Shown piece after piece: positions 7,515-35,199 of a stretch of DNA of 37,822 nucleotides; position 1 is the stretch's first letter, and every line of letters begins with the position of its first letter. Both the position numbers and the translations under genes were made by a program. Under the pieces are notes generated by a model that worked only from the letters and a program-made list of their open reading frames with translations, was not told the origin of the DNA and did not search any database. The stretch comes from Thermoanaerobaculia bacterium (GTDB taxonomy: Bacteria; Acidobacteriota; Thermoanaerobaculia; UBA5066), in NCBI GenBank assembly GCA_035455045.1, contig DATIFW010000156.1:1-37822 (forward strand), given 5' to 3'.

Positions 7515-7540
7515 GGGGTTGCCGTGAACGTGGAGCGGGA

Positions 7541-10309
<2,769 letters not shown>

Positions 10310-17306: not shown

Positions 17307-17780
17307 ATGGCGCGAATTCCGAAGTTTCTCCCCGCGGTGACCATCCTGGCGACGCTCACCGCGCGTGCGGATGGAGGTCTCGGAGTCGCCTTCGGCGACG
17401 CCGCAGGGATCGCGTCCCGAAAGCTCGAGGATGAGAGATGCCTGCTCGTGCTCTCCGACTTCAGCGACGCGTCGGGCCGCCCGCTCGCGGAGCGGCTTCA
17501 TGACACGGGTCTCACGGCTCGCGAGTTCTTCGAGCGGCTCGAATTTCGCAACGGCCGTCATGAGTCGACGTGCCAGCGGAGCCGTGTGGATGCGTTCGTG
17601 CACATCGGACAGCGCACGGTCTTCGTGTGCCCGGGTGGCTGCTTCGACTTCGGACGCCGGGACGTCGGCCACGCCTCGAACGTCCTCATCCACGAGATGC
17701 TCCACACGCTAGGACTGGGAGAAAACCCGCCCACGAGCCTCGGGATCACGAGCCGGGTGGCGGAGCGCTGCGGTCGGTGA
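17307..17780 (+). CDS. small secreted putative zinc metallopeptidase (HExxHxxGxxE, mini-metzincin/snapalysin-like)
   Basis: Signal peptide MARIPKFLPAVTILATLTARA. NVLIHEMLHTLGLGENPPTS motif. Four Cys conserved with the paralogue at 18650-19174. Confidence 0.65.
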   Translation: MARIPKFLPAVTILATLTARADGGLGVAFGDAAGIASRKLEDERCLLVLSDFSDASGRPLAERLHDTGLTAREFFERLEFRNGRHESTCQRSRVDAFVHIGQRTVFVCPGGCFDFGRRDVGHASNVLIHEMLHTLGLGENPPTSLGITSRVAERCGR

Positions 17781-19754: not shown

Positions 19755-21797
19755 CTAGAAGTGGAAGCGCAGCTCGCCCGTGACGCGGCGGCGCAGGATG
19801 TCGCCGAAGACGTGCTGCTGGACGCGCGCGTCGGCCAGGTTCACGGCCCGGACGGCGACGGCGAGACCGTTCCGGAACGTCCAGCCGAGAGCCGCGTTCC
19901 AGAGCGTGAACGGGGCGGTCGTGCCGACGTACGGCTGGACGTCCGTCCAGAACGCAGACGCCGTGTAGTTCACGGAGACCGACCCGGAAAAGGGGCCGGC
20001 GGCGACGCCGAGCCCCGCGTTGACGCGGTGCCGCGCCGGCAGGTTCACGGGGATCGTCGCCGCGCCCTGCTCGCTCACGTCGGGGTCCGCCTGCCACGAG
20101 TAGTTCGCGAAGGCCGTGAGGGCGCGAGTGAGCTTCGCGTCGGCCGAGAACTCGAAGCCGCGGTCCACGATCCGCCCGAGGTTCCGGTAGCTGAACGTCT
20201 TCGGGAGGCCGATCTGGTCGAGGGCGGACGGCGGCAGCGGCCAGCCCGGCGGCGGGTCGGCCGACGTGTAGGACTCGATGGGCACGAAGAAGATGCGATC
20301 GCGCGAGATGTTGTAGTACGCCGAGGCCGTGACGGTGACGCGCCCGGCGAGCGTCCCGGTGTAACCGATCTCGAACGCGTTCATCGTCTCGGCGTCGAGG
20401 GAGCTCGAGCCCGTCGCGAGGATCGGGAAGACGTACGGGCCCGTCGGAAGCGTCGCGAAGGCCGAACTCGGGAAGTAGAGGAAATCCTCGACGAGCGACG
20501 GAGCGATGAAGGCCCGGTTCCAGCTCAGCCGGAAAGTGTGGTCCTTGTGCGGCTCGAAGATGAGGCCCGTGCGCGGCGAGACAGCCCCGCCGTACGTGTC
20601 CGACCAGTCGTAACGCGCGCCGATCCTCAGGCGCAGCGTCTCGGCGAGGAAGATCTCGTCCTCCGCGAAGACGGCGAGGTCGGTGCGCGCGTGGACGTCG
20701 GGCACGAGGCTCAGGTCGAAGTGGCTGTAACGCGCGCTCGCGCCCCACGTGACGAGGTTCTTCTCGCCGAAGAGGTGACGGTCGCCCGCCTCGGCCGCGA
20801 CGGCCTGGTTCTTCATCGTGACGACGTCGGGCGTCAGGAAGCCGACGTACTTCGCGTCGTGCAGCGTCGCCTCGCCGGCGGCGTGGAAGTCGCCCTTGCG
20901 GTACCCGGCCGAGACGTGGCCCTGGTAGAGGTCCTTGCTGTCGAAAGGCCCGAGGCCCGTGAGCATGGCGCCGTCGCTCGACGCGAAGCCCGCGCCGAAC
21001 TTCCACTTGCCCGCGTCGGGCCGGTCGAGGTCGAGGCGCAGGTCGAGGCGGTACTGGTGAGTGCCCGTGTTTTCGTACGGCGGCAGGGGCGTGCCGTCGG
21101 GCAGCGTCGTGGGGCGCTCCCAGGCGTCCTGCGTGAAGTACGAACCGCTGACCTTGTACGACGCGGCGCCCGAGGTGCCCGCGTGGATCACGCCGGCCTC
21201 GCGCGTGCCGAGCGTTCCGCCGCCGACCTTGACGGACGTTCCGAGCATCTCGGCCGGGTCCTTCGTGAGGATGTTCACGACGCCGCCGAACGCGTTTGGC
21301 CCCCACATGGCGGAGTCGGGCCCGCGGACGACCTCGACCTGCTTGACCTCGTCGAAGTTGATGGGCAGGAGGTCCCACAGGACCATTCCGAAGTAGTCCT
21401 GGTAGATCGTGCGCCCGTCGAGGAGCGCGAGCGTCGCGCGCGCGTTGCGGCCCGTCGCGAGGCGTGGCGTGAGGTTGACGTCGCGCGCGGACGTCTGCGC
21501 GACGTTGAGTCCGGGCACCGGGCGCAGGAGATCGCCGTAGCCCTCGCCCGCGGACGCCGCGATCTCGGGCGCCGAGACGACCGTGACCGCGACCGGCGCG
21601 TCGCGGAGCTCCTCGGCGGTCTTGCTCGCGGTCACGACGACCGTCTCGCCGTACGTGCGTTCGGGCTTCTCGTCCGCGGCCTCGCCGGAAGCGGCGGGCG
21701 GCGGGGTCGCGGGCGTCGGCGTCGGCGCCGGCTGCTGCGCGAGAGCGCTGCCCGCGAGAGAGCCGGCGAGAAGGGGAGCGAGGAGTCGCCGCGTCAC
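19755..21797 (-). CDS. TonB-dependent outer-membrane receptor
   Basis: GTG 21797. Signal peptide VTRRLLAPLLAGSLAGSALAQQ. Plug motifs ETVVVTASK and VEVVRGPDSAMWGPNAFGGVVNILTK. Beta-barrel with terminal ..ELRFHF. The listed 1100-aa ORF is upstream read-through. Confidence 0.9.
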   Translation of the reverse strand: MTRRLLAPLLAGSLAGSALAQQPAPTPTPATPPPAASGEAADEKPERTYGETVVVTASKTAEELRDAPVAVTVVSAPEIAASAGEGYGDLLRPVPGLNVAQTSARDVNLTPRLATGRNARATLALLDGRTIYQDYFGMVLWDLLPINFDEVKQVEVVRGPDSAMWGPNAFGGVVNILTKDPAEMLGTSVKVGGGTLGTREAGVIHAGTSGAASYKVSGSYFTQDAWERPTTLPDGTPLPPYENTGTHQYRLDLRLDLDRPDAGKWKFGAGFASSDGAMLTGLGPFDSKDLYQGHVSAGYRKGDFHAAGEATLHDAKYVGFLTPDVVTMKNQAVAAEAGDRHLFGEKNLVTWGASARYSHFDLSLVPDVHARTDLAVFAEDEIFLAETLRLRIGARYDWSDTYGGAVSPRTGLIFEPHKDHTFRLSWNRAFIAPSLVEDFLYFPSSAFATLPTGPYVFPILATGSSSLDAETMNAFEIGYTGTLAGRVTVTASAYYNISRDRIFFVPIESYTSADPPPGWPLPPSALDQIGLPKTFSYRNLGRIVDRGFEFSADAKLTRALTAFANYSWQADPDVSEQGAATIPVNLPARHRVNAGLGVAAGPFSGSVSVNYTASAFWTDVQPYVGTTAPFTLWNAALGWTFRNGLAVAVRAVNLADARVQQHVFGDILRRRVTGELRFHF

Positions 21798-23071
21798 GCG
21801 TCCACCGGGTCCGGGGAGGCGCCGGGGCCGGTGCGCCGGAGCGACTCCGGCAGGAACGTCTGTTTGTAACCGGGTGGAAGCTTCGAGAGCTCCTCGGTGA
21901 GGGCGATGTGGAGGGACTCGGACGCGCGCGAGAGGAATGCGCCGCCCGAGAGACGCTGGAGGACGTCGTAGACGAAGCGGAGCACGAGGAGCACGATCTC
22001 CTCGCTGAACCCGGCGAGTCCCAGCTTGCCCGAGAGCTCCACGCCGAGGAGCTTCATCGTCTCCGGCCCGAGGATGTCCCGCATGACGAGGCGCGGGAGC
22101 CGCGCGAGATCGGCGGGGCGCAGGTACTTGAGCGGCAGCTCGCGCGGGACGTGCTCTCCCAGGAGCTTCTCGACGAACTCGACGAGGGCGCGCGTGATCT
22201 CGACGCCGTCCTCGGTCCGTCCGGCCTGCCGCGCGCGGATCGCGTGATAGAGCATCTCGGCGCGGGCGAAACGGGACGGGCCGCCGTCGCCGGGTTCGGG
22301 CTCGGGCAGGAGGCTGCGGTCGACGCCGAGGACGAAGCCGACCACGTTCCAGCAGTGGATGAACGCCTCGGCCTGGTCGGGCGTGAAGGCGGCGCCCATC
22401 GTCTTCATGCCGCGGAGGACGACGTACGCGAACGTCTGAAGCGTGTAGGCCATGTCCTCCTGGCAGATGGGATGCCCCCACGCCGGGTTCCAGCGCGCCT
22501 CTTCGTAGACCTTGCCCATGTCGTGGCCGGCGCCCGTCGCGGTCGCGAGGATGAGGTGGCGCACGGCAGCGTGCAGGAGTCGCACCTTCTGGACGGAGAG
22601 AATGCCCTTGGCGCCGGGCGCGAGGCCGCCCGGGAGCATCGCGTCGCGCACCATCTGAGACGTCTCGAGGATGCGCAGGCCGGGGCGGTCCTTGAGGTAC
22701 GTGGTCAGCCCGAGGACGTGGATGCCGTTCCGCATCACGTAGCACTCGGGCAGGCTCGCGCAGACGAGCAGCACCGTCGCGCCGAAGCCGTTGTCGTAGA
22801 AGAATTTCTGGCCGGCCTTCACGAGAGCGGGGTCGGCCCACGGCGGCGGGTCGGCGCTCTTGACCGCGAAGTCGTGGACGGGTGAGGGGAGGTTCGCGTG
22901 CGTGAAGTCGCCTTCGAACGTAAGGCCGAAGAGGAAGTCGTTCATTCTTTTCAGACCCGTGCGGCCGCCACCCGCGTCCTCGTAGAGCGCGGCGACGGCC
23001 GCGTCGGCGAGCGGGTCGCCGACGAGACGCATCGGGGCGAGCGCCGCATCGGTCCACGGCGTGAAGGTCAT
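21794..23071 (-). CDS. MpaB/Lcp-like oxygenase family protein (DUF2236-type)
   Basis: 425 aa from ATG 23071. The all-helical sequence has family-like blocks (LPECYVMRNGIHVL, VRLLHAAVRH, QEDMAYTLQTFAYVVLRGM). Assigned by recollection of the family profile, so moderate confidence. Confidence 0.65.
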   Translation of the reverse strand: MTFTPWTDAALAPMRLVGDPLADAAVAALYEDAGGGRTGLKRMNDFLFGLTFEGDFTHANLPSPVHDFAVKSADPPPWADPALVKAGQKFFYDNGFGATVLLVCASLPECYVMRNGIHVLGLTTYLKDRPGLRILETSQMVRDAMLPGGLAPGAKGILSVQKVRLLHAAVRHLILATATGAGHDMGKVYEEARWNPAWGHPICQEDMAYTLQTFAYVVLRGMKTMGAAFTPDQAEAFIHCWNVVGFVLGVDRSLLPEPEPGDGGPSRFARAEMLYHAIRARQAGRTEDGVEITRALVEFVEKLLGEHVPRELPLKYLRPADLARLPRLVMRDILGPETMKLLGVELSGKLGLAGFSEEIVLLVLRFVYDVLQRLSGGAFLSRASESLHIALTEELSKLPPGYKQTFLPESLRRTGPGASPDPVDA

Positions 23072-25494
23072 CTGCCGTCTCCCTCGGTGCGCGGCGGCGT
23101 GAACGCCAGCCGGAAGCTGATCGCCGGGTTCAGGTAGAAGGCCGGGATCAGGTAGCGGAACGCCGCACGGCTCATGTGGCTGAACTCCGTCGAGCCCGCG
23201 AGTTCGGCCGCGCCGCCGCGGATGACGCTCGAGACCATGGCGGTCTCGCCGTGGCCCTGCGTCACGAGAGTGGCCGTCCAGTCGCGGGCGTTTCCCGCCA
23301 TGCCGCGCACGCCGTACACGGAGACGTCGGTCGGGTACGAGTCGACTGGCAGCGGCCGCGGGCGGCCCGGGTTGCTCTCTCCCGAGTTGCAGAAGCTCGC
23401 GTCGAAACGATCTCCCCACGGGAACGCGCGCCCGTCCACTCCGCGCGCGGCTTTCTCCCATTCGAATTCGGTCGGGAGGCGGTACTCCCGCCCGTCGCGC
23501 GCGGAGCGCCACTCGGCGTATGCGACGGCGGAGTGCCACGTGATGCTCACGCAGGGGCGGCGGGGATGCATCTCTTCGCCGAGGAGGTCCCGCGCCGGGA
23601 GCGTAAATCGCCCGTTCGCGTCCACCTCGAGATAGGTGCTCCCGCCCACGTCCTTCTTCGGGGAGTGCAGCGCGGCCTTCGCGGGGTCGGTCGCGACGAG
23701 GTCGTTCAGGAACTCGACGTACTCGCCCATCGTGACGGGATGTACGCCGATGCAGAAATCCTCGCTCTCGGCCATCTTCCCGGGCAGCCCCCAGCCCGGA
23801 AGCGCAGGGTCGCCGCCGAGGACGTACGGTCCCGCGGGCACGTGGACGAAGCCCTCGCCGATCTCGGCGGGCGTGAGCAGCCGCACGCGGCCGGCCCAGG
23901 TCCGCGAGCGCGAGATGAAGACGGGGTAGCGCGTTTCGGCGCGGCCCCGCGCGCGCAGGACGACGAGGTAGTTGCCCATCGGAAGCGGCAGGGAAGGCAG
24001 CGGCGTGCGCCCGAGGAGGCGCTCGTTCCCCGGGACGAGTCGGCGATCCTTCTCGGCGAACTCGTAGAGCCAAACCTCGGCGCCGGGCGGATCCGAATCC
24101 AGCGCGAGCGAGCCGTCGCCTTTGAGGGAGGTGGCATGGCGCCCGTCGTCGAAGGCCGCGGCGATCTGCCCGAAGTACCGCACGTTCCTCTGGTCGTGCT
24201 GCTCCTCGGCCTCGAGGAGCTGCTCGAAGAAGTAGTCGGCCATGACCGCCCGCGCCTCGGAGTGGCTCTCGTCGTGGCCAAGGGCGCCCGCGAGCGTCAT
24301 GACGAGTTTCGAGCCGGTGGTCGCGAGCTGGACGCGCGCGTCGCGCAGGCGGTCTTCGGCCGACGTGAGCGGTTTCTTCTCGTTCACACTCTGCCAGGGC
24401 TGGAAGCCGCCGCGCAGCGACTCGACTTCTCGTTCGAGGGCGGCCATCTCCTCCTTCTTCCCGCGGTAGTCTTCGAGGATCTGGCGTCCGCGAAGTGCGA
24501 GGACGCCGGCGTTCTCCTGCCGCTTGACCTTGTCGGCCTCGGCCTCGAGCCAGGCCTGGATCTCGTCCTGCAGCTCCAGGACGGACGCGTGGCGTGCGTC
24601 AGGAGACTTCGCGAGGGCCTTGAGACACGTGCGCTCGAGCGCGAGGGGGATCTCGCGCGCCGGCGTCCGCTCGCGCGGCGGCTTCGGGTTGTCGCGCAGG
24701 ACGGCCGCGAGCGTCGCGATCGGGTTCGCGCCCGAGAAGGGCCGCTCGAGCGTGAGGATCTCGTACATCATGATGCCCAGCGCCCAGACGTCGGACCGCT
24801 CATCCACCGGAGAGGACGCTGCCTGCTCGGGCGACATGTACGCAGGCGTCCCGACCATCTCGTCCACCCGCGTGTGGTCCGTGCCGGAGGCGAGGACCTT
24901 TCCGTCTCCGCGGTCGATCACCTTCGCGAGGCCCCAGTCGAGGACCTGCACCTCGCCGTGCTCGCCGAGCATGACGTTCGCGGGCTTGAGGTCGCGGTGG
25001 AGGACTCCGCGCGAATGCGCGAAGTCGATCGCCTGCGTGACCTGCAGGAGGACCTGCACGAGGCGCGTGATGGAGTACCGGGAGATCGTCTCGCGATCGC
25101 CCGCGCGCAGGCCGCCGAGCACGTCGGCGAGGGTGCGGCCGCGGACGTACCGCATCGCGCAGAAGGGAGCACGGTCGCCGACGACGAGGGCGTGCAGGGG
25201 CACGACGTTTGGGTGCTCGAGCTGGCCCAGGATGCGCATCTCGTCGAGGAAACGGGCGCGGCGGGTGGGGTCCTCGCCCTTGGCGACCTTGAGCGCGACC
25301 TCTCGCCCGAGAGAGGGATCACGCGCGAGGAACACCGCTCCCATGCCTCCCTCGGCGAGGAGCCTGACGATCTCGAAGCGGACGGCGCCCGACGTGTCCC
25401 GCGGCGCGTCCGCCGGAAGCGAGGGCGCGGCCGCGCTTTCCGGCGTCGGGGCGAAGGTTTCCTCTTCGGAGGGATCGCTGTCCTGCCGGCTCAT
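23068..25494 (-). CDS. bifunctional Ser/Thr protein kinase / formylglycine-generating-enzyme (SUMF1/FGE-sulfatase) family protein
   Basis: ATG 25494. GGMGAVFLARD, HRDLKPANVM, DWGLAK, GTPAYMSPEQ. Then a coiled-coil region, a PEGA-like segment (GAEVWLYEF..GNYLVVLRARG), and a C-terminal FGE domain (VTMGEYVEFL, YRLPTEFEWEKAARG, GNARDWT). Confidence 0.85.
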   Translation of the reverse strand: MSRQDSDPSEEETFAPTPESAAAPSLPADAPRDTSGAVRFEIVRLLAEGGMGAVFLARDPSLGREVALKVAKGEDPTRRARFLDEMRILGQLEHPNVVPLHALVVGDRAPFCAMRYVRGRTLADVLGGLRAGDRETISRYSITRLVQVLLQVTQAIDFAHSRGVLHRDLKPANVMLGEHGEVQVLDWGLAKVIDRGDGKVLASGTDHTRVDEMVGTPAYMSPEQAASSPVDERSDVWALGIMMYEILTLERPFSGANPIATLAAVLRDNPKPPRERTPAREIPLALERTCLKALAKSPDARHASVLELQDEIQAWLEAEADKVKRQENAGVLALRGRQILEDYRGKKEEMAALEREVESLRGGFQPWQSVNEKKPLTSAEDRLRDARVQLATTGSKLVMTLAGALGHDESHSEARAVMADYFFEQLLEAEEQHDQRNVRYFGQIAAAFDDGRHATSLKGDGSLALDSDPPGAEVWLYEFAEKDRRLVPGNERLLGRTPLPSLPLPMGNYLVVLRARGRAETRYPVFISRSRTWAGRVRLLTPAEIGEGFVHVPAGPYVLGGDPALPGWGLPGKMAESEDFCIGVHPVTMGEYVEFLNDLVATDPAKAALHSPKKDVGGSTYLEVDANGRFTLPARDLLGEEMHPRRPCVSITWHSAVAYAEWRSARDGREYRLPTEFEWEKAARGVDGRAFPWGDRFDASFCNSGESNPGRPRPLPVDSYPTDVSVYGVRGMAGNARDWTATLVTQGHGETAMVSSVIRGGAAELAGSTEFSHMSRAAFRYLIPAFYLNPAISFRLAFTPPRTEGDGR

Positions 25495-25749
25495 CGCAAC
25501 TCCAGCATCACGTGCCGGTCCATTCCCCTCCTCGATCGTCCCGAAGCGACGTGGACGCGCGGATCGTACCAGCCGCAGCCACCGGGTTTTTCTTCGGAAG
25601 TGCGCTGCCCCCTCGAGCGTCGTCAGGACGCCTGAGGATCGTGCTCTCTCGAATTCCGCGGTAGTGCGTCCGCTCGCGTCTTTACCTGATGCGAACGTTT
25701 CATTGCACCGGGACTCCATCCTACCCGATCCTTACTGCAGGAGAGCGTC
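25495..25749. promoter_or_regulatory. 255-bp divergent intergenic region between the kinase-FGE operon and the ten-gene redox operon
   Basis: It must carry both promoters. AGGAGAG Shine-Dalgarno lies 5 nt upstream of GTG 25750. No specific boxes called. Confidence 0.4.
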
Positions 25750-26280
25750 GTGAGGCCGCAAAAGAGGACCGCTAAGCGCTACGAGATGGTCAACGTGCGC
25801 CCGGGCTACCTGATGATCGAGCTCGAGAACCACACTCTCGCCCGGCGCTGCTACTTCGTGGCAGAGCGGATCCCGCCCCTGGAGGAGTACCGCGAGGGCA
25901 ATCGGTTCTGGAAGCCCCAGACGGCGGCCCAGACCATTCAGTTCGACGTCCGCGACACCGACACCGGAGAGGTGGTGCCCTTCGGCGAGCTCGCGGGCCT
26001 TCTGTATTACGCCTGCTGCGACAAGGACAGCGCCGTCTACCAGATGGGCGACCTGGCCCACGACCAGCGCGTCTCGCTTTACGTGGCGATCACCACCGAG
26101 AGCGAGAAGGGTCATACGCCCATGCCCGTCGAGAAGGTCCGGATCCTCAACACGCTCTTCAACGAGCGCCTGACCAGTCCCGGGAAGAAGGTGCTGATCC
26201 TGCCCGACCTCTTCGGTCTTTACCGGAAGATCACCTACGGGCAAATGGCGGTCGACTTCGGCCTCACGTCCATGGAATGA
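25750..26280 (+). CDS. hypothetical protein, first gene of the redox/sensor operon
   Basis: 176-aa ORF with non-repetitive, protein-like composition, a Shine-Dalgarno, and 10-nt spacing to the next gene. No family recognised. Confidence 0.55.
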   Translation: MRPQKRTAKRYEMVNVRPGYLMIELENHTLARRCYFVAERIPPLEEYREGNRFWKPQTAAQTIQFDVRDTDTGEVVPFGELAGLLYYACCDKDSAVYQMGDLAHDQRVSLYVAITTESEKGHTPMPVEKVRILNTLFNERLTSPGKKVLILPDLFGLYRKITYGQMAVDFGLTSME

Positions 26281-26290
26281 GGAGCACAGG

Positions 26291-26620
26291 ATGAAGATTC
26301 AGGAACTCGCGGAGCGGCTCGAGCTCAAGGCGGCCACCAAGGTCTTCGATCGGGACGTGACGGGCGTCTACATCTCGGACATGGTCAGCGACGTGATCGC
26401 AAACGCCAAGGCGGGCGACCTGCTGGTCACCGCACAGGCGCACGCCAACGTGATCGCCGCCGCAAACCTGGTCGACAACTGCGCCGTCGTGATCACCCAG
26501 GGGAAGGTCCTTGCCGACGACGTCGTGAAGATGGCGGAGAAGGCCGAGATCACGGTCTTCACCACGGCCCTGAATCGCTGGCAAATGGCCACGAAGCTCT
26601 ATGAGGCCGGCATTCGCTAG
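26291..26620 (+). CDS. DRTGG domain protein (hydrogenase-cluster-associated type)
   Basis: 109 aa. ISDMVSDVI..GDLLVT.Q.H.NVIAAA...AVVIT.GK......V..A....I.VF.T fits the DRTGG pattern. GAGGAG Shine-Dalgarno. Confidence 0.7.
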   Translation: MKIQELAERLELKAATKVFDRDVTGVYISDMVSDVIANAKAGDLLVTAQAHANVIAAANLVDNCAVVITQGKVLADDVVKMAEKAEITVFTTALNRWQMATKLYEAGIR

Positions 26621-26654
26621 ACGGTCGCCGCGAGGCGGCCCCAGAGGTGAGGGC

Positions 26655-27023
26655 ATGCTTCTCGCGGAGATCGTCACGCTCCTCGGTTGCACGGAGCTGC
26701 TGGCGCTCGACCAGGCCGGCGACCGCGAAATCGCCGCTTGCTTCGCCGCCGACCTGATGAGCGAGGTGCTGGCCTTTTCGGGCCACGGGCCTCTCCTCGT
26801 CACCGGATTGACCAATTTGCAGTCGGTGCACACGGCCGAGGTGGTCGACGCGCAGGCCGTCCTCTACGTGAACGGCAAGCGGCCCGACGCGCAGGTCCTG
26901 GCCGTGGCGCGCGCGCGCGGCCTGCCCCTCCTGTCCACCGCCCTGACCATGTACGAAGTCTGCGGCCGCCTGCACCGGAGCGGCCTGCCCGTCTCCACCA
27001 AGGAACAGGGGACCCCACCCTGA
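26655..27023 (+). CDS. DRTGG domain protein (second copy)
   Basis: AADLMSEVLAF..GPLLVTGLTNLQSVHTAEVVDAQAVLYVNGKRP...LAVARARGLPLLST.LTMYEVCGRL. ATG 26655. Confidence 0.7.
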   Translation: MLLAEIVTLLGCTELLALDQAGDREIAACFAADLMSEVLAFSGHGPLLVTGLTNLQSVHTAEVVDAQAVLYVNGKRPDAQVLAVARARGLPLLSTALTMYEVCGRLHRSGLPVSTKEQGTPP

Positions 27024-27448
27024 GCGAGGTTCTCTATGCCGAGACCTTCCCGATCCGCGGGGGCGATTTCGAGCATGGGGGAGAGGTGGCCACTCGCATC
27101 AAGTCCATCTGCAAGGACCTGGGAATCCGGCCCGACCTCATCCGCCGGCTTTCCATCGCCAACTTCGAGGCGGAGATGAACGTCATCATGCACGCCGACG
27201 AGGCGGACCTGAGCTTCCAGGTTCTGCCCGAGGCGGTGCGGGTGGTGGTGGCGGACCGCGGCCAGGGAATCCCAGACATCGAGCTGGCGATGACTCCGGG
27301 TTGGTCCACCGCGACACCCGCGATGCGCGCCCGCGGCTTCGGAGCAGGGCTGGGGTTGCCCAACATCAAGAACAGCGCGGACGAGTTCGAGCTGAAATCG
27401 ACTCCCGGAGTCGGGACGACTCTCACCTATGCGGTGCGACTTGTCTGA
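27020..27448 (+). CDS. histidine-kinase-like ATPase (anti-sigma-factor/Ser-kinase type HATPase_c) of hydrogenase-type regulatory clusters
   Basis: FPIRGGDFEHGGEVATRIKSICKDLGI..IRRLSIANFEAEMNVIMHA....DRGQGIPD...GFGAGLGLPNIK. The start is uncertain: the only codon preceding the conserved N-terminus is CTG 27020, which overlaps the upstream stop. The next canonical start, GTG 27086, would remove conserved residues. Confidence 0.65.
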   Translation: MSEVLYAETFPIRGGDFEHGGEVATRIKSICKDLGIRPDLIRRLSIANFEAEMNVIMHADEADLSFQVLPEAVRVVVADRGQGIPDIELAMTPGWSTATPAMRARGFGAGLGLPNIKNSADEFELKSTPGVGTTLTYAVRLV

Positions 27449-28769
27449 CGTGGCGGAAGGCGACCGCCCCAAGAGCAAGCACTCGATCGTGTTCGACCGG
27501 GAGCTGTGCGTGGGTTGCGTCGACTGCTGCAAGTCGTGTCCCACCGGGGCGATCCGCGTACGGGCCGGGTGCGCCGTCGCTGACCCCGACCTCTGCATCG
27601 ACTGCGGCGAGTGCATCCGCTGGTGCCGGCACGGGGCGATGCACGCGGCCACAGCAAGCACCGCGGATCTCAAACGCTTCAAGTACACGGTGGCCTTGCC
27701 CTCGCTTACTCTTTACTCCCAGTTCGGCAAGGAGGTGGAGCCCGGCCAGGTGCTGCAGGCCCTCCGCAGCCTGGGGTTCGACGACGTCTACGACCTTTCG
27801 GCCATGTGCGACATGCACGCGAGCGCCACCGACGCCTACCTCTCGGAATGCCGCGGTCCCTGGCCGAAAATCTCGGTGACCTGCCCCGCGATCATCCACC
27901 TGATCCAGCTCCGTTACCCGGACATGATCGACAACCTGCTGCCGATCGAGACGGCGCGGGAACTGGCCGCCAAGCTGCTGCGCCGTCGGCTGGTGGCGGA
28001 AAAGGGGCTCGCGCCCGGCGACATCGGCATCTTCTTCATCACGCCCTGCAGCGCCATGCTGCAATCCATCCATCACCCGGAGGCCCTGGAAGCGTCGTAC
28101 CTGGACGGGGCCTTCTCCATCGCCGAGGTCTACGGTCCGCTGCTCAAGGCGATCGAGGCCTGCGGGCCGGTGGAGAATCCCCCGCCCATCAGCGAGCGCG
28201 GGCTGCTCTGGGCGATGGCGGGCGGGGAGATCGCGGGCCTGCGCAACGCCAACACGATCACCGTGGCCGGGGTGCGCGACGTGCTGCGGGTCTTCGACCA
28301 CATCGAGGAGGGCAAGCTTCAGGCCGTCGACTTCATCGAGGCCTACATCTGCCCGGACGGCTGCATCAGCGGGCAGCTCACGGTGGAGAACCGTTACGCC
28401 GCCCGGCGCACCGTGCAGCAGATCGTGCGCCGGCACGGCCGGCTCGCGGGCGAAGGGGCGGTCGTGCCCGAGGAGAAGGTGCGAGCGATGTTGCGGGAGC
28501 ACTTCTTCGACCTGGAGGAGCACCTCAAGGCGCGTCCGGTGCGCCCGCTCGGACGCGACTTGCGCGAGGCGGCCGCGCGCAAGCGAGAGGAAGAACGCGT
28601 GCTCGCGCAACTGCCGGCCAAGGACTGCGCGGCCTGTGGCGCCCCCGGTTGCGCCGCCCACGCCGAGGACGTGGCGCGCGGCCTGGCCGCGCTGGAAGAT
28701 TGCGTGTTCGTCCGCATCGAACGCCTGAAGGAGGCGATGGCCTCCACGAAGGAATCCGTCTATGACTAA
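27429..28769 (+). CDS. [FeFe]-hydrogenase large-subunit-like (H-domain) protein with degenerate H-cluster motifs, an N-terminal 2x[4Fe-4S] and a C-terminal RnfB-type Fe-S motif (putative sensory/regulatory)
   Basis: CVGCVDCCKSCP / CIDCGECIRWC. H-domain motif equivalents are VTCPAI (vs TSCCPxW), ITPCSAM (vs MPCxxKxxE) and EAYICPDGCISGQ (vs ExMxCxxGCxxGGGQP). C-terminal DCAACGAPGCAAHAEDVARG..DC. Confidence 0.8.
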   Translation: MRCDLSDVAEGDRPKSKHSIVFDRELCVGCVDCCKSCPTGAIRVRAGCAVADPDLCIDCGECIRWCRHGAMHAATASTADLKRFKYTVALPSLTLYSQFGKEVEPGQVLQALRSLGFDDVYDLSAMCDMHASATDAYLSECRGPWPKISVTCPAIIHLIQLRYPDMIDNLLPIETARELAAKLLRRRLVAEKGLAPGDIGIFFITPCSAMLQSIHHPEALEASYLDGAFSIAEVYGPLLKAIEACGPVENPPPISERGLLWAMAGGEIAGLRNANTITVAGVRDVLRVFDHIEEGKLQAVDFIEAYICPDGCISGQLTVENRYAARRTVQQIVRRHGRLAGEGAVVPEEKVRAMLREHFFDLEEHLKARPVRPLGRDLREAAARKREEERVLAQLPAKDCAACGAPGCAAHAEDVARGLAALEDCVFVRIERLKEAMASTKESVYD

Positions 28770-29163
28770 GCAGATGCTCGTGCTGGAGCTGTGCTGCCCC
28801 CAGTGCGGCGCGGCTCTCACCGAGGGCACGCGGGTGCGCCTCGACGGCCACGTGCGCCGTACCCACGAGCAGAGGGAGGTCTCCCTGAGCGCCGTCTTCG
28901 GCGACGACAGCGGGGAGGGCGACCCTGCCCTGAAGGAGGGCGACGTCGTCGATCTCAGCTGCCCCAAGTGCGAGGCCAGCCTGATGCTGCCGCTGGCCTG
29001 CAAGATCTGCGGCGCCCCCATGGCGTCGCTCAACATTGCCAAGGGCGGCACCCTCGAGTTCTGCACCCGGCGCGGATGCCGGGCCCACGCCTTCGGGGGC
29101 ACCGGCAACATCGACGACATGATGAGCCTGATGAATCGCATGTTCGAGACGCCCTACGACTAG
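28762..29163 (+). CDS. small Cys-rich (multi CxxC zinc-ribbon-like) protein of unknown function
   Basis: 133 aa. CPQC...CPKC...CKIC...C..RGC. The start overlaps the upstream stop by 8 nt. Confidence 0.55.
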   Translation: MTKQMLVLELCCPQCGAALTEGTRVRLDGHVRRTHEQREVSLSAVFGDDSGEGDPALKEGDVVDLSCPKCEASLMLPLACKICGAPMASLNIAKGGTLEFCTRRGCRAHAFGGTGNIDDMMSLMNRMFETPYD

Positions 29164-29187: not shown

Positions 29188-29664
29188 ATGGATGCGCCGC
29201 GCCCCTACGACTTCAAGAACCTCCAGTACAGGGGCGAGGGCGGGGTCCTGATCCCGCTCCTGCAGAAGTATCAGAACGAGGACGGCTACATCTCCCGCGA
29301 GCGGATCGCCGAGATCCACAGGAAGACGGGAGTGCCTCTCTCGCAGATCTTCGGGGTGGCCACCTTCTACGCGCAGTTCCGGCGGCACCCCGTGGGCCGC
29401 AACATCATCAGGGTCTGCCACGGCACGGCCTGCCACGTGGCGAACGCCAGGGCGATCTCCAGGACCCTCGAAGACCAGCTGCGGATCCGGGACGGCGAAA
29501 CCACGCCGGACCGCGAGTTCACCCTCGAGACGGTGGCTTGCCTCGGCTGCTGCAGCCTGGCCCCGGTGGTCATGATCAACAAGGACACGCACGGCAACCT
29601 CAAGCCCACCGACCTTCGGAAAGTGCTCAGGCCTTACCGGGAGAAGAGGGCGGCAGGCCCGTGA
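29188..29664 (+). CDS. NuoE/HydC-like thioredoxin-fold [2Fe-2S] subunit
   Basis: LLQKYQNEDGYISRERI, VCHGTACHV and ACLGCCSLAPVVMIN cluster ligands. Confidence 0.9.
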   Translation: MDAPRPYDFKNLQYRGEGGVLIPLLQKYQNEDGYISRERIAEIHRKTGVPLSQIFGVATFYAQFRRHPVGRNIIRVCHGTACHVANARAISRTLEDQLRIRDGETTPDREFTLETVACLGCCSLAPVVMINKDTHGNLKPTDLRKVLRPYREKRAAGP

Positions 29665-31424
29665 GAATTCTCGTGGGTCTCGGCACGTGCGGAATGGCGG
29701 CAGGCGCCGGGGCGACCTACGCCGCACTCCAGGCCAGGACGGGAACGCTCAGCGGTCACTGCAACGTGGGGAAGACCGGCTGCGTGGGTATGTGCTTCCG
29801 CGAGCCACTCGTGGAAGTGCGCGAGGACGACGGGACGCGCTGGCAGTACGGGCAGATGACTCCGGAGAGGGTCGACCGCCTGCTCGAGGAGCACGTCGGA
29901 AAGGGCCAGCCCATCGAGGAGTGGCTCGTGTGGACCAGCGAAGGGAAGGGCCGGGAAAAGACGTTCCTCGACCGCCAGCAGCGCATCGTGCTGCGCAACT
30001 GCGGCCTGATCGACCCGGAGAGGATCGAGGAGTACTTGGAGGTGGGCGGGTACCAGGCCCTGAAGAGGGTCCTCGAACGGAAGGACCCTGACGGCCTCAT
30101 CAACACGATCATCGAATCCGGGCTGAGAGGGCGCGGGGGGGCGGGCTTCCTGACCGGGATGAAGTGGCGCTTCACCCGGCTGGCCTCGGGGAAGCAGAGA
30201 TACGTGATCTGTAACGCCGACGAGGGCGACCCCGGGGCCTTCATGGACCGCTCGGTCCTGGAGAGCGACCCCCACTCGGTGCTGGAGGGCATGGCCATCG
30301 CCGGCCACGCCATCGGCGCCACGCAGGGCTACATCTATGTGCGCGCCGAGTACCCCATGGCCGTCGAGCGGCTGAACATCGCCGTCGCCCAGGCCGAGGC
30401 GCACGGCCTCCTGGGTCACGACGTCCTGGGCACCGGGTTCGAGTTTCACGTCGAGCTGAAGGAAGGGGCGGGGGCCTTCGTTTGCGGCGAGGAGACGGCC
30501 CTCATCGCCTCGATCGAGGGCCGCCGCGGAATGCCTCGCATCCGGCCGCCTTTCCCCGCGGTCAAGGGACTGTGGGAGTGCCCGACCAACATCAACAACG
30601 TCGAGACTTTCGCCAACGTGCCTTGGATCGTGCTCAACGGGGCCCTGGCCTTCAACCGCCTCGGCACCGCCAACAGCAAGGGCACGAAGGTCTTCGCGAT
30701 GGCGGGCAAGATCCGGCGGGGCGGGCTGGTGGAGGTCCCGATGGGGATCTCCATCCGTGCGATCGTCAACGACGTCTGCGGGGGCATCAAGGAAGACCGG
30801 AAGTTCAAGGCCGTGCAAATGGGCGGCCCCTCCGGGGGCTGCATCCCCGCGGAGTTGCAGGACACCGTCATCGACTACGAGTCCATCAACAAGACGGGCG
30901 CAATCATGGGCTCGGGTGGGCTGGTGGTGCTCGACGAGACGACCTGCATGGTGGACGTGGCGCGTTTCTTCCTGGACTTCACACAGCGCGAGTCCTGCGG
31001 GAAGTGCACGTTCTGCCGGGTGGGCACCAAGCGAATGCTGGAGATCCTCGTCCGCATCACGGAGGGCCAGGGCCGGGAAGGGGACATCGAGAAGCTCGAG
31101 AACCTCGCCTCCCTCGTGAGGAACAACTCGCTCTGCGGCCTGGGCCAGACCGCCCCGAACCCGGTCCTCACGACCCTCAAGTACTTCCGGGGGGAGTACG
31201 AGGCGCACATCTCCAACCGCAAGTGTCCCGCCCACCAGTGCCAGGCCCTGCTCACCTATACCGTCAACGAGAAGTGCAACGGGTGCCAGGTGTGCAAGCG
31301 GGCCTGTGCGGCCAAGGCCATCACCGGCGAGAAGGGGAAGCCTCACGTCATCGATCACAGCCTGTGCGTCCGCTGCGACGAGTGCTATCGGGCCTGCCGC
31401 TTCGAAGCGATCACGAGGATGTAG
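29661..31424 (+). CDS. NuoF/HydB-like NADH-binding FMN Fe-S flavoprotein with an N-terminal [2Fe-2S] domain and a C-terminal 2x[4Fe-4S] domain
   Basis: GTG 29661 overlaps the nuoE-like stop (GTGA). GLRGRGGAGFLTGMKW, ICNADEGDPGAF, ESCGKCTFCRVG, SLCGLGQTAPNP. C-terminal CNGCQVCKRAC / CVRCDECYRAC. Confidence 0.9.
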   Translation: MRILVGLGTCGMAAGAGATYAALQARTGTLSGHCNVGKTGCVGMCFREPLVEVREDDGTRWQYGQMTPERVDRLLEEHVGKGQPIEEWLVWTSEGKGREKTFLDRQQRIVLRNCGLIDPERIEEYLEVGGYQALKRVLERKDPDGLINTIIESGLRGRGGAGFLTGMKWRFTRLASGKQRYVICNADEGDPGAFMDRSVLESDPHSVLEGMAIAGHAIGATQGYIYVRAEYPMAVERLNIAVAQAEAHGLLGHDVLGTGFEFHVELKEGAGAFVCGEETALIASIEGRRGMPRIRPPFPAVKGLWECPTNINNVETFANVPWIVLNGALAFNRLGTANSKGTKVFAMAGKIRRGGLVEVPMGISIRAIVNDVCGGIKEDRKFKAVQMGGPSGGCIPAELQDTVIDYESINKTGAIMGSGGLVVLDETTCMVDVARFFLDFTQRESCGKCTFCRVGTKRMLEILVRITEGQGREGDIEKLENLASLVRNNSLCGLGQTAPNPVLTTLKYFRGEYEAHISNRKCPAHQCQALLTYTVNEKCNGCQVCKRACAAKAITGEKGKPHVIDHSLCVRCDECYRACRFEAITRM

Positions 31425-31428
31425 GGGC

Positions 31429-34400
31429 ATGGAACTCGTCAAGCTCTACATCGACGGCAAGCGGGTCATCGCGGACAACCGGATGACGATCCTGGAAGTG
31501 GCCCGCGAGAACGGGATCACGTCGATCCCGACCCTCTGCCACGACGGTCGCCTCGAGCCCTTTGCCTCCTGCTACCTGTGCGTCGTCAAGGTGCGGGGTG
31601 GGCGCACTCTGACGCCCGCCTGCTCCACGAGGGTGGCGGCGGGCATGGTGGTGGAGACCTCCAACGCGGAGATCCGTCGTTCGCGGAAGGCGGCCCTCGA
31701 GCTGATGCTCTCCAACCACTTCGCGGATTGCATCGGCCCCTGTCAGCTGGCCTGCCCGGCCGGAGTGGACATTCAGGGCTACATCGCGCTCGCCGCTTTG
31801 GACAAGTACCGCGACGCCATCGCCCTCATCAAGGACCGCAATCCCCTGCCCGCGGTGTGCGGACGCGTCTGTACCCGGCCCTGCGAGGTCAAGGGCTGCC
31901 GGCGCACCCTGCTCGACGAGGCGGTGGGCGTCGACTACATCAAGCGATATCTCTCCGACCTCGACCTCGGCGACAAGAATCCCTGGCGCCCGAGCGTGGC
32001 CCCTCACAACGGAAAGAAAGTGGCCGTCGTGGGGGCGGGCCCGGCGGGGCTGTCCTGCGCCTACTACCTCGCCCTGCGCGGCTACAAGGTCTCGATGTTC
32101 GAGGCCCAGCCCGAGGCGGGGGGCATGCTGCGCTATGGCATCCCCGAATACCGCCTGCCGAAGGACGTCCTCGACCTTGAGATCAACCAGATCCTCGACC
32201 TCGGCGTCCAGCTCTCCACCAACGTCCAGCTCGGCCGCGACTTCACGATCGCAAGCCTCAAGCAGGTCGGTTACGACGCCGTCTTCCTGGGAATCGGGGC
32301 CTGGGACAGCTCCAAGATGCGCGTCGCGGACGAGGACTCCCCGGGGGTTCTGGCCGGCATCGAGTTCCTCAGGCAATTCGGCCTCAAGCGCAGGATCGAC
32401 ATCCACGGAAGGGTGCTCGTCGTGGGCGGCGGCAACACCGCCATCGACTGTGCGCGCACCGCCCTGCGCCTGGGCGTCGCCGAAGTGCGTCTCCTCTACC
32501 GGCGCACGCGCACGGAGATGCCCGCCAACCAGACGGAGATCGCCGAGGCCGAGCACGAGGGCGTGAAGATGGACTTTCTCGCCGCCCCCGTGCGCGTCCT
32601 GCGCGGCGAGAACGGCCGCGTGGCGGGGATGGAGTGCATTCGCATGGAGCTGGGCCAGCCCGACCAGAGCGGCCGCCGCAGCCCGAAGCCCGTTCGAGGC
32701 TCGGAGTTCCGCGTCGACTGCGATTTCGTGCTCGCCGCCATCGGCCAAGGCACGCGCGTCAAGGAGCTCGTGGACGGGCGGGTGCCCAACTTCCTGCCGC
32801 TCGGCGAGTCGCTGAGCCTCACGCGCTGGCAGACCGTGGAGGTCAACGAGCGCACGTTCGAGACCACCGTCGACGGCGTGTTCTCGGGGGGCGACGTCGT
32901 CACGGGAGCAGCCACCGCCATCGAGGCCATCGCCGCCGGACGCAAGGCCGCCTACGCCATCGACCGCTACGTGGCCACCGGCCGGGCCGAGCCCGAGCCG
33001 GTGGAGGTTTACAGCCGCAAGGACGCCTATCGGAAGGTCGACGTCGAGGACCTCCCGCCCGGCTCCGCAGACGGACGGCGGGGCATGCCCGTGCTCCTCC
33101 CGGCGGAGCGCGCCCTCAGCTTCGCCGAGGTCGAGACCGGCTACAGCGGCGAGGACCTGCGCCGGGAGACGGCGCGCTGCCTCGAGTGCGGCTGCACCGC
33201 TCTCTTCACCTGCGACCTGAGGCGCTACGCCACAGAGTACGGGGCCGACGTTCAGACGTTCATGGGCGAGGCCGTCGAGCACCGCGTCGACCGGCGACAC
33301 CCGTTGCTCGTGCTCGACCCCAACAAGTGCGTGCTGTGCGGCCGTTGCGTGCGGATCTGCAGCGAGCTCGTGGGGGTGGCCGCCTACGGCTTCGTCAACC
33401 GCGGCTTCGACACCGTGGTCAAGCCTGCGTTGGGCGACTCCCTGCTCGACACCGAGTGCGTGAGCTGCGGGCTCTGCATCGGCACCTGCCCCACGGGGGC
33501 CATCGCCGAAAAGCTCCCCCTCACCAAGCCCGGCCCCTGGAAGACCACGCGGGTGGAGTCGGTGTGTCCCTACTGCAGCGCGGGATGCCGGCTGGGCTAC
33601 GAGATATCCGGCACGACCCTGGTGCAGGTTTCGCGCGCGGCCGGAAACCCGGGCACCGGCGGCAACCACTGCAAGAAGGGCCGCTTCGGATACGGCCACG
33701 TGCAGTCGAAAGAGCGCCTGCGGTGGCCGCTGCTGCGCGTCGGGCGCGAGCTGCAGGAGACGAGCCTCGACGAAGCCCTGCGTTACGCGAGCATGCGGCT
33801 CAAGGAGCTCACCCGCCGCGTCAGCGGGGACCAGGTGGCGGTCTTCGTCTCCCCCCGCCTGACCAACGAGGAGATCTACCTCGCCCAGAAGCTGGCCCGG
33901 CTGGCCCTGCGCACGCACAACGTGACCTCGCTGACCCACCTCGTCAACCGCGAGCTCGAGGCCCCGGACGTGGTGTCCACGGCATCGCACGCGGACATCG
34001 CCGACGCCCAGGCCCTGCTCGTCGTCAACACGGCCCTCGACGAAGAGAGCTTCGCGGTGGACATCGCGTGCAAGCAGGCCATCCGCAAGGGAGCCCGCCT
34101 CGTCTACGTCGGCCCGGAGGACAACCGCACCTCGCGCTTTGCCGAGCTGCATCTGCGCTCCCTGCCCGGCGGACAGACTTTTGCCATCCTCGGCCTGCTG
34201 AAGGACTACGCCGCCCTCGAGCCGGGCGCCCTCGACGACCGGCCAGGGCTGTCCCGGGCGGTGGCCGATCTCTCCGACGAGCAACTCGAGAAGCTCTCCG
34301 GAGTGCCGCGCGCCGCCTCGCGCGAGGCGGCCGCCATCCTGTCGAAGACCATCCTCAAGGTGATGCTGTTCAACAAGGACTACCGTGGCGCGCGACAGGC

Positions 34401-35199
34401 CCACGACGAGCGGCTCTTCGCCGAGGCGGCCGCGGCCCTGGGCTGCTCGGTTCTCGCGCTACGCGAAAAGGCGAACACCCAGGGGCTGCTCGACATGGGC
34501 GCCGACCCGCGATGGCTGCCCGGTTACGTCGACCCCGAGGGCGGCGAGGCCCTGGAGCAGATGGAGAAAGAGCTGGGGGTGGTCCTGCGCGAACTCTCTC
34601 CGCCCGGACTGGACGTGGCCCAGCTCCTGCGCGAAAAGAAGATCAAGGTCGCCGTCGTGCTCGGCGAGGACCCGGTGGGCGCCGCCGGGTTCCCGCAGGA
34701 CCTGCGCGACGGCCTCCTCGCCGCCGATTTCCTGCTCGTGGGCGACCTCTTCCTCACCGCGACGGCGGCCAGCGCGACCGTGGCCTTGCCGCTGTCGAGC
34801 ACGGGGGAGACGAGCGGCACCATGACCAATGCCGAGCGTCGCGTTCAGCGGTTGCAGCGGGCGGTGCCCCCCGTGGGTGGGATCGAGACGTGGGAGATCC
34901 TCAGCCAGCTCGCCGGCCAGCTCGGCTACCGGTTCAAGATGAAGTACGGGTCCGTGCAGGACGTGACCGCGGAGATCCAACGGGTGGTGCCGATCTGGGC
35001 GGGGCTCGACCTCGACTCCGCGGGTGCGGTCTGGAATGCGGACGGCTTCAAGCTGCCCAAGGTCCCGTTCACCGGGTTGGGAAAGCCGGTCGCCCCCGTG
35101 CCCACCCTCGGGCTCGACAACCTCGAGGTCCGCTTCGGGACCTGGTTCGACACGATCTTCGAAAAGGCCCGCGCGGCGCCGCCCGTCGTCTCGCTGTAA
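31429..35199 (+). CDS. 1256-aa fusion: NuoG/HydA-type N-terminal [2Fe-2S] + GltD-like Fe-S/FAD/NAD(P)H oxidoreductase + 2x[4Fe-4S] + Mo-bisPGD-type [4Fe-4S] + truncated formate-dehydrogenase-alpha-like domain
   Basis: CHDGRLEPFASCYLCVV. GltD blocks CIGPCQLACPAG..PLPAVCGRVCTRPCE, KKVAVVGAGPAGLSCAYYL, LVVGGGNTAIDCART. CVLCGRCVRIC / CVSCGLCIGTCP. VCPYCSAGC...NHCKKGR. FDH-like blocks REKANTQGLLDMGADPRWLPGY and VVLGEDPV. The ORF is uninterrupted (no in-frame TGA). ATG 31429 lies 4 nt after the upstream stop. Confidence 0.85.
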   Translation: MELVKLYIDGKRVIADNRMTILEVARENGITSIPTLCHDGRLEPFASCYLCVVKVRGGRTLTPACSTRVAAGMVVETSNAEIRRSRKAALELMLSNHFADCIGPCQLACPAGVDIQGYIALAALDKYRDAIALIKDRNPLPAVCGRVCTRPCEVKGCRRTLLDEAVGVDYIKRYLSDLDLGDKNPWRPSVAPHNGKKVAVVGAGPAGLSCAYYLALRGYKVSMFEAQPEAGGMLRYGIPEYRLPKDVLDLEINQILDLGVQLSTNVQLGRDFTIASLKQVGYDAVFLGIGAWDSSKMRVADEDSPGVLAGIEFLRQFGLKRRIDIHGRVLVVGGGNTAIDCARTALRLGVAEVRLLYRRTRTEMPANQTEIAEAEHEGVKMDFLAAPVRVLRGENGRVAGMECIRMELGQPDQSGRRSPKPVRGSEFRVDCDFVLAAIGQGTRVKELVDGRVPNFLPLGESLSLTRWQTVEVNERTFETTVDGVFSGGDVVTGAATAIEAIAAGRKAAYAIDRYVATGRAEPEPVEVYSRKDAYRKVDVEDLPPGSADGRRGMPVLLPAERALSFAEVETGYSGEDLRRETARCLECGCTALFTCDLRRYATEYGADVQTFMGEAVEHRVDRRHPLLVLDPNKCVLCGRCVRICSELVGVAAYGFVNRGFDTVVKPALGDSLLDTECVSCGLCIGTCPTGAIAEKLPLTKPGPWKTTRVESVCPYCSAGCRLGYEISGTTLVQVSRAAGNPGTGGNHCKKGRFGYGHVQSKERLRWPLLRVGRELQETSLDEALRYASMRLKELTRRVSGDQVAVFVSPRLTNEEIYLAQKLARLALRTHNVTSLTHLVNRELEAPDVVSTASHADIADAQALLVVNTALDEESFAVDIACKQAIRKGARLVYVGPEDNRTSRFAELHLRSLPGGQTFAILGLLKDYAALEPGALDDRPGLSRAVADLSDEQLEKLSGVPRAASREAAAILSKTILKVMLFNKDYRGARQAHDERLFAEAAAALGCSVLALREKANTQGLLDMGADPRWLPGYVDPEGGEALEQMEKELGVVLRELSPPGLDVAQLLREKKIKVAVVLGEDPVGAAGFPQDLRDGLLAADFLLVGDLFLTATAASATVALPLSSTGETSGTMTNAERRVQRLQRAVPPVGGIETWEILSQLAGQLGYRFKMKYGSVQDVTAEIQRVVPIWAGLDLDSAGAVWNADGFKLPKVPFTGLGKPVAPVPTLGLDNLEVRFGTWFDTIFEKARAAPPVVSL

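Follow-up and report, generated by a model that had tools for sequence, protein, structure and literature searches.

The DNA analyzed here, hereafter the window, is a 37,822-nucleotide (nt) stretch of contig DATIFW010000156.1 (assembly GCA_035455045.1) from a Thermoanaerobaculia bacterium, read on the forward strand and with an overall G+C content of 67.9%. It carries three adjacent plus-strand genes, nfnC, nfnB and nfnA, which follow one another in this order with overlapping or 4-nt spacing. The first, nfnC/stnA (29188..29664; Pfam and Protein Data Bank (PDB) matches), encodes a NuoE-like [2Fe-2S] protein (BfuC); the second, nfnB/stnB (29661..31424; Pfam and PDB matches 9bov_B, 8oh5_B and 9n5u_B), encodes the NuoF-like BfuB and has a GTG start (29661) that overlaps the nfnC stop (29664); and the third, the subject of this work, is an nfnA/stnC-type gene (31429..35199) whose 1256-amino-acid (aa) product is assigned to the BfuA subunit of Nfn-Bfu from its open reading frame (ORF) and PDB phmmer matches. 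The nfnA ORF runs from an ATG at 31429, 4 nt past the nfnB stop, to a TAA at 35197-35199 over 1256 codons without internal stops or TGA, and the enclosing stop-to-stop frame (31120-35199) has a third-position G+C content (GC3) of 0.89, which is usual for a real gene in this genome. We place the start at ATG 31429 because Met1 is invariant across 49 full-length homologs (more than 120 full-length NfnA homologs were found in all); an upstream GTG at 31306 was rejected, as it overlaps nfnB and the homologs begin at the ATG.

Domain order and cluster ligands of the large subunit

Domain scans of the 1256-aa protein with Pfam (E ≤ 0.01) and NCBIfam resolve a succession of redox modules along the polypeptide and confirm the layout given in an earlier sequence-only reading of this DNA, which had listed in a single ORF a Fer2 domain, a GltD unit, a Cys-rich segment, a 2x[4Fe-4S] ferredoxin, a MopB-type [4Fe-4S] domain and a part resembling the alpha subunit of formate dehydrogenase (FDH). 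The N-terminal [2Fe-2S] ferredoxin domain (aa 3-79, 31435..31665; Fer2_4, E = 4e-16), with Cys37/48/51/65, is followed by a junction motif, HxxxCxxxCxxxCP (H97, C101, C105 and C109; 31717..31758), read from the sequence itself. Past this point lies an inserted GltD/NfnL-like unit (aa ~103-565, 31735..33123), covered by Fer4_20 (103-178) and Pyr_redox_2 (196-504, E = 1.8e-26) and matching in the PDB the NfnI large subunit (5jca_L, 1.5e-81) and GltD (2vdc_G). Its cluster ligands are C144/148/152/157 together with K172; a FAD motif, GAGPAG, spans aa 202-207 (G202xG204xxG207), and an NADPH-type motif, GGGNTA, spans aa 333-338 (G333xG335xxA338) and is followed by YRR at 357-359 (Y357), so that this GxGxxA site is predicted to be specific for NADP(H). 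A second junction motif, CxxCxCxxxxxC (C584/587/589/595; 33178..33213), likewise read by eye, precedes a 2x[4Fe-4S] ferredoxin-like domain of the NuoG/Nqo3 type (33301..33504; Fer4_Nqo3/Fer4_7, 625-692), with C634/637/640/644 for the first and C677/680/683/687 for the second cluster, and a MopB-type [4Fe-4S] domain (33547..33705; Molybdop_Fe4S4, 707-759, E = 1.2e-8) with C713/716/720/748. The remainder of the protein consists of an Fdh-alpha-like (MopB) domain (33706..35028), delimited by a Pfam Molybdopterin match to about aa 1163, by FDH alignments and by an AlphaFold2 (AF2) model, and of a short C-terminal tail (aa 1201-1256, 35029..35196). The NCBIfam model TIGR01973 (NuoG) is matched up to its last position, and TIGR01591 (Fdh-alpha) only over positions 2-509 of 672.

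All 31 cluster Cys of the window protein are invariant across the 49 homologs (62-91% identity), and so are both junction motifs, H97/C101/C105/C109-P and C584/587/589/595. The ligand sets give one predicted [2Fe-2S] and six predicted [4Fe-4S] sites, the same complement as reported for StnC of Sporomusa ovata. K172 aligns with Lys165 of Thermococcus sibiricus (Tsib) NfnA (in 'LKRF'), which is a ligand of the FAD-proximal [4Fe-4S] cluster A7, and its column is occupied by Lys in 37/37 GltD-bearing sequences aligned and throughout the 49-homolog alignment. Cys144 (31858-31860; 'PAVCGRVC', a GltD-like arrangement) is invariant in the 49 close homologs and has Ile or Leu as its counterpart in the solved NfnAs of Caldicellulosiruptor saccharolyticus (Csac, with Ile) and Tsib; Csac Cys115 is in turn replaced by Ile in the window protein, a swap that may reflect variation in cluster ligation.

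Loss of the formate dehydrogenase active site

A HMMER search of the C-terminal 557 aa against the PDB sequences retrieved genuine FDHs, among them 7qv7_S (E = 2e-54), 9t1s_L, 9wxb_B, 6tg9_A and FdhH (1aa6_A, E = 2e-43), and we inspected the first four of these alignments. The FDH-homologous blocks quoted in the sequence-only reading (REKANTQG..., VVLGEDPV and LPLSSTGETSGTMTNAERRVQR) are indeed present and align to FDH blocks. At the active-site loop, the query segment N831-V-T-S-L-T-H-L-V839-N840-R-E aligns to 'NVDHCARLCHAP' or 'NNTDTCARVCHSP' in 4/4 alignments, which equates the metal-ligand Cys/Sec position with Val839 (codon GTC) and the neighboring His position with Asn840. The loop equivalent NVTSLTHLVNRE (33919..33954) thus stands in place of NVDxCARxC/U-HxP: the Cys/Sec-His pair (..CARxC/U-H..) is absent, the protein reads LTHLVN and there is no in-frame TGA, just as had been noticed from the letters of this segment. 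Across the 49 homologs, column 839 holds V, L, A or I only, and column 840 is Asn in 46.

As a family-wide test of the same loop, we drew 47 diverse representatives out of an exhaustive HMMER search and aligned them. The Cys-His pair occurs in none of the 33 GltD-bearing NfnA-type representatives (1139-1276 aa), all of which have a tail of 22-107 aa after the GYRF column. A live site would have been detected by this alignment, because it is visible in the GltD-FDH fusions and control FDHs that were included. Three GltD-bearing proteins (P0194, P0203 and P0224), which at 1365-1373 aa are about 110 aa longer, keep CARVCH, display 'NVDNCARVCHAPS' together with 'LRGQNNVQG', and have a tail that measures ~190 aa. 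The live-site features recur in ordinary FDH-type controls, P0193 among them, and the C-H pair is seen in both P0193 and P0202, within a full CARxCH motif in the former. These three long fusions probably represent functional, NADPH-linked FDHs akin to the inactive NfnA domain. As for the catalytic Arg of FDHs (R587 in Rhodobacter capsulatus FdsA, within 'LRGQNNVQG', as counted from the alignment), the window protein retains it as R1012; among the 49 homologs its column is Arg in 32, His in 13 and something else in the remaining 4, a variability that indicates relaxed constraint, and the GQNN context is lost.

The protein also lacks the C-terminal part of an FDH. No Pfam match to Molydop_binding (PF01568) was found at E ≤ 0.01 in the 1256 aa, and the FDH alignments stop at about residue 512-521 of 715 in FdhH, with 56 query residues remaining. 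The tail past GYRF, which had been estimated at ~95 aa, is indeed short but measures 87 aa, compared with about 190 aa in intact relatives, and the query tail aligns to residues 985-1117 of the 1172 of StnC. In an AF2 model of aa 585-1256 (mean pLDDT 85.9, pTM 0.90), coil and a single long helix (aa 1231-1249) come after the MopB fold, and no beta-barrel is seen; the final 56 residues (aa 1201-1256) take the place of the ~200-aa FDH C-terminal part that includes the Molydop_binding beta-barrel. By Foldseek, the model scores a query TM-score (TMq) of 0.74-0.76 against NAD-dependent FDH alpha subunits (RaFDH 0.74), 0.68-0.71 against Csac NfnA (9bov_A) and StnC (8oh5_C), and 0.67 against FdhH; the comparison of the C-terminal domain with StnC and Csac NfnA was made through HMMER coordinates and Foldseek. 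No moa, mob or fdhD genes are present among the ORFs of the 37.8-kb window, as a search suggested alongside the sequence-only reading now shows, although such genes can lie elsewhere.

The domain scans and FDH alignment that had been proposed with that reading therefore both speak for a dead and truncated MopB domain. The ligand Cys, Sec or Ser, the His and the Molydop_binding domain are all missing, and only the Arg survives. Having lost the Cys/Sec metal ligand, the catalytic His and the beta-barrel that would cap the pterin, the domain is not expected to oxidize formate. The central proposal of the sequence-only reading, a GltD-type flavoprotein inserted into a NuoG/FdhA-type scaffold whose MopB domain is non-catalytic and devoid of its C-terminal barrel, is thus upheld by scans (including the TIGR01591 match that ends at 509 of 672), alignments, family conservation and the structural model.

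Relationship to the bifurcating NfnABC and StnABC complexes

All three gene products are orthologs of subunits in solved transhydrogenase complexes. In phmmer searches of the PDB, the window NfnA matches Csac NfnA (9bov_A, 1178 aa; E = 7.7e-248), S. ovata StnC (8oh5_C, 1172 aa; E = 2.8e-222) and Tsib NfnA (9n5u_A; E = 2.9e-195), and over the N-terminal 700 aa its identity to Csac NfnA is 47%, with corresponding cluster Cys except Cys144. NfnB aligns end to end with 9bov_B (4.1e-251), 8oh5_B (1.2e-244) and 9n5u_B (1.5e-243); every cluster Cys of 9bov_B is conserved, including those of the N-terminal thioredoxin-like [2Fe-2S] and the C-terminal 2x[4Fe-4S] domains, and the FMN/NAD site contains GAFMD ('egdpgafmdrs') and GGPSG ('mggpsgg'), bifurcating-type motifs that have been described before (PMC12018979). 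NfnC is matched by Pfam 2Fe-2S_thioredx (E = 1.3e-47) and by 9n5u_C (3.8e-46), as well as by 9bov_C and 8oh5_A. On the strength of these comparisons, the window ORF very probably encodes the large subunit (NfnA/StnC, BfuA) of an electron-bifurcating NADPH/NADH/ferredoxin transhydrogenase of the Bfu family, acting together with NfnC and NfnB; Nfn-Bfu has been assigned to the BfuABC family by Schut et al. (2022). The fused GltD-NuoG/Fdh architecture is an already known and structurally solved protein type and is not new.

Indeed, Kumar et al. in 2023 (PMC10482914) described StnC as GltD (aa 102-565) fused to NuoG, both of its junction motifs have been reported, and HxxxCxxxCxxxCP has been attributed to the integration of GltD into NuoG (PMC7483475). 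Its FdhF-like domain (aa 683-1172) is termed 'catalytically inactive' and mediates tetramer formation, and deletion of that domain blocks purification of the active complex (PMC10482914). In Csac NfnA the pterin site is incomplete and no pterin density is seen, and the A2-A4-A5 clusters make up a lateral dead-end branch, 'an evolution remnant', without known partner (PMC11829005). The Fdh-like domain is called inactive and pterin-free in this literature (PMC10482914, PMC11829005, PMC12018979), and in the solved relatives it has a structural and oligomerization role.

The window protein resembles each of these systems and departs from each in particular ways. Csac NfnABC (9BOV/9BP5; PMC11829005) is built from these three subunits too, with the domains of NfnA in the same order and, in the Fdh-like domain, the incomplete pterin site and dead-end cluster branch; the window protein is 78 aa longer, mainly in the middle of the Fdh-like domain, which is 27% identical, and it comes from Acidobacteriota rather than Firmicutes and has different operon neighbors. 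S. ovata StnABC (8OH5/8OH9; PMC7483475, PMC10482914) shares the GltD insertion into a NuoG-like protein, both junction Cys motifs, the set of six [4Fe-4S] and one [2Fe-2S] sites in the large subunit, the inactive FdhF-like domain and the short C-terminus without a barrel, whereas its genes adjoin Wood-Ljungdahl genes (metVF/pabAB) and the window nfnCBA genes follow a putative H2-sensor module. T. sibiricus NfnABC (9N5U; PMC9304861, PMC12018979) agrees with the window enzyme in core architecture, in the Lys ligand of cluster A7 (K165 = K172) and in its bifurcating NfnBC core; Tsib NfnA, however, comprises 963 aa and lacks in the alignment the second ferredoxin-type Cys motif, all four Cys of which (C677-C687) are kept here. 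With the FDH alpha subunits (FdsA of R. capsulatus, 6TG9; MeFDH1, 7VW6; FdhH, 1AA6) the window protein shares the NuoG/MopB fold (TMq 0.67-0.76) as well as the [4Fe-4S] motifs and a number of pterin-binding blocks, and it differs from them by the missing Cys/Sec-His pair, the missing domain IV beta-barrel, the absence of molybdenum cofactor (Moco) genes nearby and the GltD insert.

NuoG/Nqo3 and Geobacter SfrA follow a like principle, in that a MopB domain is kept as a scaffold after loss of the pterin site, and the likeness to such non-catalytic remnants drawn in the sequence-only reading was reasonable; the closer and proper assignment is to NfnABC/StnABC. Nqo3, like FdsA, carries an extra C-terminal beta-barrel that NfnA does not (PMC12018979), and the window NfnA has none either. 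Neither nuoA-D nor nuoH-N genes of complex I occur in the 37.8-kb window, where only NuoE/F-like genes adjoin nfnA, and a NuoG of respiratory complex I was set aside in view of the GltD insert and the lack of membrane-subunit genes in the window. SfrAB, which we set apart by published descriptions rather than by sequence, consists of two proteins, the GltD-like SfrB and the MopB-like SfrA, without BfuBC; identity with it was likewise rejected, the window encoding one fused polypeptide with NuoE/F-like partners and the NCBIfam model PRK12814 scoring below its cutoff.

By analogy with the characterized complexes, we infer how the window enzyme would work, from its reaction and the route of its electrons to the structural part played by the dead domain. 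The FAD in the GltD/NfnL-like insert would oxidize NADPH and release electrons singly; these would travel by way of the two GltD [4Fe-4S] clusters (A7/A6, one of them ligated by Lys172) and then the NuoG-type clusters before reaching the NfnBC core, where FMN and the clusters close to it would divide them between NAD+ and ferredoxin. The reaction would be reversible, with NADH and reduced ferredoxin yielding NADPH. The Fdh-like domain, with its [4Fe-4S] cluster and fold kept, would be an evolutionary remnant that acts as a scaffold.

Gene neighborhood, alternative readings and significance

Five further plus-strand genes lie directly upstream of nfnCBA (25750..29163), delineated by Pfam, NCBIfam, H-cluster motif alignment and synteny, to give the order orf176, DRTGG, DRTGG, a 446-aa [FeFe]-hydrogenase-like gene, orf133, nfnC, nfnB, nfnA. 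Among the related loci (L001-L025), 17 preserve all eight genes in this order at 44-99% identity, in metagenome-assembled genomes (MAGs) labeled Acidobacteriota, Eisenbacteria, Bacteroidota, Terriglobia and Anaeromyxobacteraceae. The hydrogenase-like gene (27429-28769) encodes a putative sensory [FeFe]-hydrogenase of the M2e/group-D (TamHydS) type. Two [4Fe-4S] motifs lie at the N-terminus of its product and a Cx2Cx4Cx16C motif at the C-terminus, and there is no PAS domain; the H-cluster motifs read 'VTCP', 'TPCSAM' and 'EAYICPDGCISG', with all four H-cluster Cys kept and Thr in place of both the proton-relay Cys299 and Met353. On these features we class the protein as M2e/group-D, a putative H2 sensor. 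Such proteins are proposed H2 sensors that are normally encoded upstream of the bifurcating HydABC; in the window, the M2e-type gene sits upstream of the transhydrogenase operon, in place of the usual HydABC. The linkage points to H2-responsive regulation of the transhydrogenase, and a physical partnership is much less likely.

Of the remaining genes in this cluster, orf176 (25750-26280) has no Pfam or NCBIfam assignment and no recognizable motif, and orf133 (28762-29163), also without Pfam or NCBIfam assignment, encodes a Cys-rich 133-aa protein with four CxxC-type pairs in a zinc-ribbon-like arrangement. A HydD-like [2Fe-2S] ferredoxin was considered for orf133 and set aside, the four pairs looking more like a zinc ribbon; the gene is retained even in loci without the M2e gene (L011, L019). 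Farther upstream, the window contains two large Ser/Thr kinases (7229-10309, plus strand, and 23068-25719, minus strand), of which one carries PD40 repeats and the other an FGE-sulfatase domain, two Trans_reg_C-FHA regulators (16574-17359 and 17831-18475, both on the minus strand) and a TonB-dependent receptor (19755-23057, minus strand), a gene content in keeping with an Acidobacteriota MAG as the source.

Several observations weigh against the assignment as a bifurcating transhydrogenase subunit. Catalysis by the window clade is predicted from homology, and identity to the characterized NfnAs is moderate: N-terminally it reaches 47%, but over the Fdh-like part no more than 27-30%. The latter is, moreover, closer to genuine FDHs (E = 2e-54) than to its counterparts in StnC (1e-36) and NfnA (1e-33) and about 50 aa longer in the middle, so that the domain is less eroded here, and the FDH Arg is kept. 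Finally, the operon context differs from that of S. ovata stn, and additional partners or regulation are therefore possible. The strong similarity of the MopB-like domain to real FDHs (7qv7_S, TMq 0.74-0.76), the retention of several pterin-binding blocks and of the catalytic Arg, and the existence of GltD-fused FDHs with an intact active site could be taken to mean that the protein is an active NAD(P)H-linked formate dehydrogenase, that is, a GltD-fused FdhA with an unconventional metal ligand. We give this almost no credence, as Val and Asn replace Cys/Sec and His family-wide, the ~200-aa C-terminal part with its barrel is absent, the Arg is not conserved in the NfnA family, the intact fusions are ~110 aa longer and keep CARVCH, the solved relatives are pterin-free and the window holds no Moco genes.

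It is similarly improbable, if somewhat less remote, that the enzyme is a non-bifurcating NADPH oxidoreductase with another acceptor, in the manner of the proposed NsoABC (NADPH:sulfur, Thermococcus litoralis) or of SfrAB (NADPH:Fe(III), Geobacter). PRK12814, a GltD-type NCBIfam model, spans aa 1-647, a StnC region that Kremp et al. compare with SfrB; both Kumar et al. and Kremp et al. name NsoC among the closest StnC homologs, and NfnA alone has NADPH:viologen activity according to the literature. Yet the PRK12814 score of 645.8 falls below the cutoff of 916, and the co-operonic BfuB has all the bifurcation-specific extras (N-terminal 2Fe-2S, C-terminal 2x[4Fe-4S] and GAFMD). A further reading would place the subunit in a larger H2-linked complex, in which the M2e hydrogenase-like protein, perhaps with the Cys-rich 133-aa protein, docks on the 'dead' Fdh-like domain and the side-branch clusters serve as electron entry or exit. 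The conservation of the eight-gene cluster across phyla, the intact set of H-cluster Cys, the partnerless A2-A4-A5 branch of Csac NfnA and the measurable H2 turnover reported for TamHydS speak for such a complex, but M2e enzymes lack the proton-transfer pathway, have low activity and are read as sensors encoded next to HydABC, some loci (L011, L019) keep nfnCBA without the M2e gene, and StnABC and NfnABC are complete and active with three subunits; we therefore hold it to be a long shot. Were it true, H2 would be coupled to the NADPH, NADH and ferredoxin pools. The chances are just as slim that, in the clade of Acidobacteriota, Eisenbacteria and Bacteroidota, the less-eroded domain now serves the M2e, DRTGG and 133-aa partners as a platform for docking and for electron entry; the bifurcating transhydrogenase would then sense H2 or be coupled to it, and would have either a fourth substrate or a redox sensor built into it.

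The assignment to the large subunit of a three-subunit bifurcating transhydrogenase bears foremost on annotation. The homologs go by varying database names ('formate dehydrogenase major subunit', 'Nitrate reductase', 'molybdopterin-dependent oxidoreductase', 'FAD-dependent oxidoreductase'), which look like misannotations now that the Fdh-like domain proves dead and the proteins orthologous to NfnA/StnC; to count such genes as FDHs or nitrate reductases would be misleading, because the evidence points to a transhydrogenase large subunit. The architecture itself teaches nothing new and would not surprise a specialist, the value of the finding lying in annotation. Lineage and operon setting are mildly new relative to known Nfn-Bfu, which has been described as mainly from Firmicutes and Euryarchaeota (PMC9304861): the closest locus, at 97% identity, belongs to a Thermoanaerobaculia MAG, and relatives are found in MAGs of Acidobacteriota, Eisenbacteria, Bacteroidota, Terriglobia and Deltaproteobacteria. 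The range of Nfn-Bfu thereby extends to abundant soil and sediment MAG lineages, and the link to a putative H2 sensor offers a small, testable lead on how the balancing of redox pools may be regulated in them.

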